Origin: Escherichia coli | Lineage (GTDB): Bacteria; Pseudomonadota; Gammaproteobacteria; Enterobacterales; Enterobacteriaceae | NCBI RefSeq assembly: GCF_003334385.1 | Contig: NZ_QOWN01000224.1 | Direction: 5' to 3' (one strand) | Length of the DNA: 239 bases | In this document: positions 1 to 239 of the stretch, one piece after another | Position numbering within the stretch: the stretch's first letter is position 1 | Layout: each line of letters starts with the position of its first letter | Translations under genes and position numbers: made by a program | The notes under the pieces: model-generated | The model's database searches: none | Seen by the model: the letters and a program-made list of their open reading frames with translations, nothing else | Told to the model about the DNA's origin: nothing

Positions 1-41
1 GCAATAATGTATGTTCCGATGCTGTAAATTTCCCCGGGTAC
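1..41 (-). other. Start of non-collagenous C-terminal region ([13 protein letters not shown]...), continuing beyond the window
   Basis: Gly periodicity is lost after GRL. Residues become hydrophobic/aromatic (V, I, Y) and codons shift to AT-rich (GAA ATT TAC AGC ATC GGA ACA TAC ATT ATT). No stop codon before the window edge. Confidence 0.6.
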
Positions 42-239
42 CAGCCTTCCGGTTGGCCCTTGTGGTCCCTGTGGTCCCTGTGGTCCGGTTTTACCATCCA
101 ACCCGGGCGGTCCCATCGGCCCTCGCCCTCCGGCAGGGCCCCGTGGCCCCGGAACACCCTGCGCCCCCGCTGGTCCCCTTTCACCTCGTGGCCCTGCCGG
201 ACCTGCCTTACCTTCCGCTCCGGCGGTACCATCCTTTCC
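1..239 (-). CDS. Collagen-like triple-helix repeat protein, internal fragment (partial at both ends; N-terminal side beyond position 239, C-terminal side beyond position 1)
   Basis: Reverse complement read in the frame whose first codon is complement(237..239) translates without stops as [79 protein letters not shown] (79 codons plus 2 bases). Gly occupies every third position for 22 consecutive triplets, which is the defining collagen signature. The plus-strand open frame is a low-complexity shadow of this. Confidence 0.8.
42..239 (-). other. Collagenous (Gly-X-Y)n domain: 22 uninterrupted triplets, 66 codons
   Basis: Codons 1-66 of the minus-strand frame. Pro is at X in 11 of 22 triplets and at Y in only 2 (GVP, GPP). 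Charged residues K, D, E, R are frequent. No interruption of Gly periodicity. Confidence 0.8.
60..86 (-). repeat. 9-bp tandem repeat, 3 copies, encoding (Gly-Pro-Gln)3
   Basis: Plus strand reads ttgtggtcc / ctgtggtcc / ctgtggtcc at 60-68, 69-77, 78-86. On the coding strand these are GGACCACAG, GGACCACAG, GGACCACAA; the only difference is a synonymous third-position change (CAG vs CAA). The adjacent unit at 51-59 (GGGCCAACC, GPT) is a diverged fourth copy. Confidence 0.85.

Follow-up and report, generated by a model that had tools for sequence, protein, structure and literature searches.

Which kind of protein carries an uninterrupted collagen-like repeat in Escherichia coli, and in which structure would such a repeat be used? 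This question is raised by the stretch of 239 nucleotides analysed here (in the following the window), and our analysis indicates that the window is, with high confidence, part of the collagen rod of a virion side tail fibre encoded by a lambda-like prophage. Translation of the minus strand from base 239 yields 22 consecutive Gly-X-Y triplets (198 nt, window positions 239..42) with neither a stop nor a frameshift across them, in exact agreement with the count and the coordinates of the collagen-like run described by the sequence-only reading. Its judgement that such a run is unlikely by chance was borne out as well, since the longest Gly-X-Y run in 5000 mononucleotide shuffles comprised 7 triplets in any of the six frames, compared with the 22 observed, and the remaining five frames of the real window hold runs of at most five. 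Moreover, the Pfam Collagen model (PF01391), which had been proposed as a check, matches the 79-aa fragment encoded by the window at E = 6e-9. No Rfam family matched the window at E-values up to 1.

The collagen block ends within the window at base 42. Positions 42..239 on the minus strand, delimited by translation, triplet count and the Pfam Collagen match, hold the last 22 of the 34 Gly-X-Y triplets of the second collagen block of a larger protein (residues 336-401), while positions 3..41 on the same strand represent the first 13 codons of its C-terminal domain (residues 402-414) and bases 1-2 the start of codon 415, both placed by the open reading frame found in a matching prophage locus (L014, 3302..4783). 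The sequence-only reading had expected the repeat to continue past position 239, and in the full gene 12 further triplets indeed lie upstream, giving the total of 34 (residues 300-401). In addition, Tandem Repeats Finder located a 9-bp tandem repeat, TGTGGTCCC, in 2.9 copies at positions 61..86, coding for GPQ-GPQ-GPQ on the minus strand. Comparison of the loci showed two or three GPQ copies at this repeat depending on the homologue, which is consistent with slippage or unequal recombination and with a rod length that would change by one triplet per event.

The genomic origin of the window was traced by an exact search with 28 bases from its non-repetitive end, which identified 14 IMG/VR prophage contigs. 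The whole window is 100% identical in two of these loci, L013 and L014, both from one IMG genome, and likewise in L017. It corresponds to the reverse complement of positions 1668473-1668711 of CU928162.2 (assembly GCA_000026305.1) at 100% identity, the place represented by L013, and an exact-protein look-up with a neighbouring gene product, the downstream DUF4376 protein, led to a locus on the same record. CU928162.2 is the chromosome of E. coli ED1a. L014 represents a second prophage tail region of the same genome, 99.9% identical over about 5 kb and with identical fibre-gene DNA; altogether four loci of the ED1a genome matched the junction sequence, two of them with identical stf DNA. Downstream, the tail regions of L013/L017 and L014 diverge. 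Further loci of this genome, L011 and L012, encode related fibres of 517 and 502 aa with other triplet numbers. In the complete E. coli genome collection the best matches are 95-99% identical and differ by triplet indels, because the ED1a record is absent from that collection, and the 493-aa protein itself has no exact entry in a collection of 15 billion proteins. Homologues are labelled in RefSeq and GenBank as 'tail fiber protein' or 'prophage tail fiber N-terminal domain-containing protein'.

In the full locus the window codes for residues 336-414 of the 493-aa ORF on the minus strand. The protein begins with a prophage tail fibre N-terminal domain (PfN, PF08400; residues 1-134, E = 2.2e-42), followed by collagen block 1 (residues 136-241; 106 aa with one GDPGGPPG break), a phage tail fibre repeat 2 (Pf2, PF03406; residues 248-289, E = 8e-16) with a short Ala/Glu/Lys-rich segment next to it, collagen block 2 (residues 300-401; 102 aa, 34 triplets) and a C-terminal domain of 92 aa (residues 402-493) with no Pfam match. 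The full protein gives four Pfam Collagen matches (E-values from 3.5e-8 to 3.6e-7), and among the PHROGs it matches phrog_366, 'tail fiber protein', best (E = 2e-126). Furthermore, residues 1-91 align to residues 1-91 of PDB 9E7M chain Ta, a 94-residue 'Tail fiber protein' (E = 4.3e-29). This chain is the N-terminal collar domain of gpStf, the side tail fibre of Ur-lambda, 12 copies of which form a collar at the junction of tail tube and tail tip, from which four trimeric fibres arise (PMC12617516).

The neighbouring genes agree with this assignment. Upstream and on the same strand lies a lambda-type tail-tip J gene (TipJ, L014 4968..8498), scoring 2127.8 with NCBIfam model NF049904 against a cut-off of 1950, and downstream a gene whose 192-aa product has a match to phrog_1141, 'tail fiber protein'; DUF4376 is the sole domain found in this product, which is not of the classical Tfa chaperone family. 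With J upstream and a DUF4376 tail-fibre gene downstream, the gene therefore fills the stf slot of a lambdoid tail module. Among the carriers that the sequence-only reading had left side by side, the phage tail fibre was the correct one once PF08400, PF03406 and the site downstream of J are taken into account.

The protein is already known. Ghosh et al. 2012 (PLoS One 7:e37872, PMC3368898) catalogued 'EHEC prophage collagen-like proteins', EPclA to EPclD, and Table 3 of that study lists ECED1_1681 of E. coli O81 ED1a as an EPclC protein of 493 aa with collagen blocks of 106 and 102. The ORF described here has the same length and the same block lengths and comes from the same genome, and its coordinate near 1.67 Mb fits the locus-tag number; judged by lengths, genome and coordinate rather than by locus tag, it appears to match ECED1_1681. 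The EPclC order PfN - Col - Pf2 - Col - non-PfC C-terminus is found here too, with PfN, two collagen blocks around Pf2, no PF06820 match and a location in a prophage tail module. ED1a entries other than ECED1_1681 are given in the same table with 520 and 566 aa, from which the 517 and 502 aa of L011 and L012 differ.

The biochemistry in PMC3368898 concerns EPclA and EPclB, and our literature search found no experiment on ECED1_1681 or any EPclC-type protein. EPclA and EPclB (O157:H7 ECs2717 and Z1483) have the PfN domain, the collagen shaft, the prophage side-tail-fibre position and the Pro-rich X position in common with the protein described here, and EPclB likewise has two collagen blocks split by a Pf2 repeat. 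In contrast, both carry a 109-116-aa PCoil coiled coil and a terminal PfC domain (PF06820), whereas the present protein has neither a separate long PCoil nor PF06820. Produced recombinantly, EPclA forms trimers whose CD spectrum is that of collagen and which melt cooperatively at 42 C. PfC serves EPclA as a trimerisation module from which the helix can nucleate anew, and the whole molecule has the shape of a dumbbell whose stalk is hinged (PMC3368898). The same authors regard the EPclPs as probable side tail fibre components in adhesion to E. coli (PMC3368898). In the window, Pro occupies 50% of X and 9% of Y positions, close to the EPclP average of 48% and 7% (PMC3368898), while Lys/Arg at X (18% of triplets) and Asp/Glu at Y (14% of triplets; GKD, GKA, GKT, GLD, GAE) contrast with EPclP averages of 0.3% and 0.1% (PMC3368898). 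Charge placement at window positions 42-239 is thus partly reversed relative to the published EPclP pattern, and collagen block 1 of the same protein shows the usual pattern.

Comparison with lambda Stf (Ur-lambda; PDB 9E7M / 9MGH; PMC12617516) reveals a homologous collar domain, a Pf2 repeat, the same place after J and the same trimeric fibre logic. The shafts differ: lambda Stf, which binds OmpC, has a shaft of coiled-coil and T4 gp37-like segments, whereas here it consists of two collagen blocks. The distal domains are unrelated, and the downstream gene encodes a DUF4376 protein rather than a recognised Tfa; neither a gp37-like distal shaft and receptor-binding domain nor the Tfa gene of the lambda Stf type was found at this locus. 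The protein thus shares with lambda Stf the N-terminal domain and the gene position and not the distal part. In lambda, the side fibres touch the cell before the central fibre and speed adsorption (PMC12617516).

From this architecture we propose that the fibre is a homotrimer whose PfN domains would dock on the tail as a collar in the manner of lambda Stf, and in which the Gly-X-Y repeats of three chains would be wound around one another as a collagen triple helix. The shaft would be jointed and made up of the two collagen blocks, with the Pf2 repeat and its short helical segment between them as the joint. At 0.286 nm per residue, block 2 would be a thin, rigid distal rod of about 29 nm, of which the window accounts for about 19 nm, and block 1 would measure roughly 30 nm. 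Trimer assembly probably starts at the C-terminal domain, from where the helix would zip up in the N-terminal direction; the same domain probably makes contact with the host surface, and the downstream DUF4376 protein may assist it. The functions of both the C-terminal domain and the DUF4376 protein, proposed by analogy, are much less certain than the assignment of the rod. The repeat DNA would make rod length evolvable, as homologues differ by whole triplets. As a discovery the finding carries little weight, given that the protein class was catalogued and partly characterised in 2012. Nevertheless, it would illustrate cleanly how a phage can employ a collagen triple helix that lacks hydroxylation as a spacer of adjustable length within the fibre that recognises the host, a point of relevance for host-range engineering and for prophage-mediated gene spread in E. 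coli.

Whether such a fibre is still built is a separate issue. The gene might be an intact-looking relic in defective prophages that build no particle now, a fate suggested by the several related copies in ED1a and by O157 prophages with frame-broken EPclA copies (PMC3368898). Set against this, the ORF is full length and unbroken in both same-genome copies, and near-identical genes occur in cultured plaque-forming Escherichia phages, where DNA identity across the window is 95.8% and the C-terminal domain is identical throughout (100%). Moreover, when variable sites among seven full-length homologues were assigned to minus-frame codon positions, positions 1/2/3 received 9/9/24 sites in the window (binomial p = 0.0013) and 37/38/96 over the gene (p = 8e-10), a third-position excess that is consistent with purifying selection. 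We consider relic status unlikely, and it would leave the encoded product unchanged.

A second alternative retains the prophage location and assigns the product to the lysogen instead of the virion, namely as a collagen-like surface adhesin, comparable to Scl, Lcl or BclA, that the prophage would carry as cargo. These proteins (streptococcal Scl1/Scl2, Legionella Lcl, Bacillus BclA) likewise join an unhydroxylated Gly-X-Y repeat to a globular trimerising domain, the NCBIfam SclB, Lcl and SclA models as well as BclA in the PDB give significant E-values via the collagen repeats, the genes just downstream encode true surface adhesins, one an Eib-like trimeric autotransporter and the other a Peptidase_S6 autotransporter, and a host-side role of EPclPs was left possible by the authors who described them (PMC3368898). 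The scores of the adhesin models are far below their curated cut-offs, though, with 129.3 against 325 for NF038329, 93.6 against 400 for NF038330 and 94.4 against 500 for NF046116. Inspection of the sequence further reveals a polar N-terminus (MTVRISGVLKDGTGKPVPG...) with no hydrophobic signal peptide and a C-terminus (...GIGLFQRAY) with neither LPXTG nor a beta-barrel anchor. The N-terminal domain is the tail-collar domain of lambda Stf, and the gene takes the place of stf, with J on one side and a tail-fibre gene on the other. Whereas Scl1/Scl2, Lcl and BclA are cell-surface proteins, the protein described here, having no signal peptide and no wall anchor, would be structural to the virion, and an adhesin serving the lysogen is very improbable.

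Less probable still, to the point of being negligible, is that the true gene lies on the plus strand as a 376-aa proline-rich ORF over the window, with the minus-strand collagen reading being incidental. Plus frames 2 and 3 of the window are nearly or wholly open, plus-strand ORFs of 376, 230 and 223 aa run across the collagen blocks in the full locus, and one of these, lying outside the window, has a match to phrog_26766, whose function is unknown. But open antisense frames of this kind are to be expected, because in repeats of the form GGN-CCN-NNN stops can arise solely opposite the Y codon, and the antisense of such repeats is, by inference from the code, stop-poor by nature. The plus-strand frames over positions 1..239 are parts of the 376-aa and 145-aa ORFs of the full locus and represent shadow frames antisense to the collagen repeat, not genes. 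The 376-aa ORF has no PHROG match, whereas the minus-strand ORF bears PF08400 and PF03406 outside the repeats. Variation sits mostly at minus-frame third positions, and every indel keeps the Gly register of the minus frame: the segments equivalent to the window in eight homologous loci measure 230, 239, 266 or 275 nt, differing by multiples of 9, and Gly occupies every third residue in all of them but one, the exception being a single Gly-to-Ser change. The sequence-only reading had placed the coding frame on the minus strand and named a break of the frame or a gene on the plus strand as what would overturn this; both were looked for, and neither was found.

Two observations attach to the antisense frames and to the deviating homologue. 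The match to phrog_26766 (97 positions) falls on an antisense shadow ORF just past base 239 (L014 3798..4487, plus strand; E = 7e-38), and phrog_26766 itself looks like an annotation artefact, its members being antisense ORFs wrongly called in collagen tail-fibre genes. The homologue with Ser for Gly (GPVSPAGPAG), which implies one break of the triple-helix register, is located at L016 8001-8275 in E. coli G1/2 (NZ_CP060083.1). The L016 prophage is of a different type, with an N4-gp56 family major capsid protein and DUF6682, and its fibre does not follow a lambda J gene. The collagen and C-terminal module thus appears to be present in unrelated phage backbones.

The top PDB matches of the full protein by score are vertebrate collagens, purely via Gly-X-Y composition, and a fragment of a eukaryotic or giant-virus collagen or C1q-type protein is discounted altogether, as the window matches both an E. 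coli chromosome and IMG/VR prophage contigs at 100% identity and the distribution of Pro follows the reported non-hydroxylating phage and bacterial pattern, while human collagens have 33-42% Pro at Y. As carriers of the repeat, Scl, Lcl, BclA, giant-virus and eukaryotic proteins were all excluded by the 100% identity to E. coli prophages and by failed family thresholds.

The 92-aa domain at the C-terminus, which starts at position 41 of the window, matches no Pfam family and none of the PADLOC defence models, and a permissive PDB sequence search with it returned nothing better than E = 0.1. A word-indexed homologue search found E. coli fragments only, and HMMER, run exhaustively against 1.84 billion representatives, recovered relatives with at least 91% identity and, beyond these, only weak matches in several stretches. 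The domain is thus at least 91% identical in all strong relatives. The weak matches (P0018-P0023) each comprise 6-9 stretches in proteins of 758-3688 aa, at E = 1e-8 to 8e-4 and 28-38% identity, and P0018 showed no significant Pfam domain. We regard these multi-stretch matches as compositional, a shared beta-sandwich fold being the alternative. The repeats in P0018-P0023 resemble tandem beta-rich modules of surface proteins, e.g., TIKDANGNVIGSGTVGADGNFQ. An AlphaFold2 monomer prediction of the domain from a shallow alignment reached a mean pLDDT of 35.9, too low for the model to be of use.

While block 2 spans 30 to 50 triplets among the loci, the C-terminal domain is nearly invariant. Eight Escherichia phages in culture, from the PhiR5 and PhiR12 series and with E. 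coli C, K-12 MG1655 and ECOR13 as hosts, bear the domain at 93-100% identity, and it is therefore a module used by viable phages; a literature search for the PhiR5 and PhiR12 phages gave no relevant paper. Additionally, L004, L005 and L008 have the last collagen triplets and the C-terminal domain joined to another N-terminal part (MTQKYKTIITTE...) of about 385 aa with two Pf2-like repeats, whose best PHROGs are 988 and 381 (tail protein/tail fiber protein). This N-terminal part presumably resembles the N-terminus of the P2 gpH tail fibre. The comparison of these sequences points to module exchange with a joint that would lie inside the collagen repeat. By analogy, the C-terminal domain is presumed to be a trimerisation and receptor-binding tip. 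Going further, it might represent a new fold, an unusually conserved and portable tip for receptor binding and trimerisation that is swapped together with the last triplets among lambda-type (PfN), P2 gpH-type and other scaffolds, the collagen repeat serving both as recombination joint and as length adjuster; we put this forward as a tentative possibility, and in its entirety rather an improbable one.

The surroundings of the fibre gene hold further genes for surface proteins. Two genes downstream lies a gene for a YadA-type trimeric autotransporter of 394-396 aa (L014 832..2022, minus strand; L017 5261..6445), which matches the immunoglobulin-binding protein EibD (PDB 2XQH, E = 2e-31; 2XZR, E = 6e-27) and, on these matches, encodes an Eib-like surface protein carried as prophage cargo. 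Another example of the EPclC type, ORF-401, comes from prophage P-EibA of ECOR-9 (PMC3368898), which suggests that EPclC-type fibre genes and eib genes travel together. Also in ED1a, L017 7277..8579 contains an autotransporter gene of the Peptidase_S6 (SPATE-type) kind, 1341 codons long and a few genes past the fibre gene, and this end of the prophage is flanked by, or carries, several genes of the surface or secreted virulence type.
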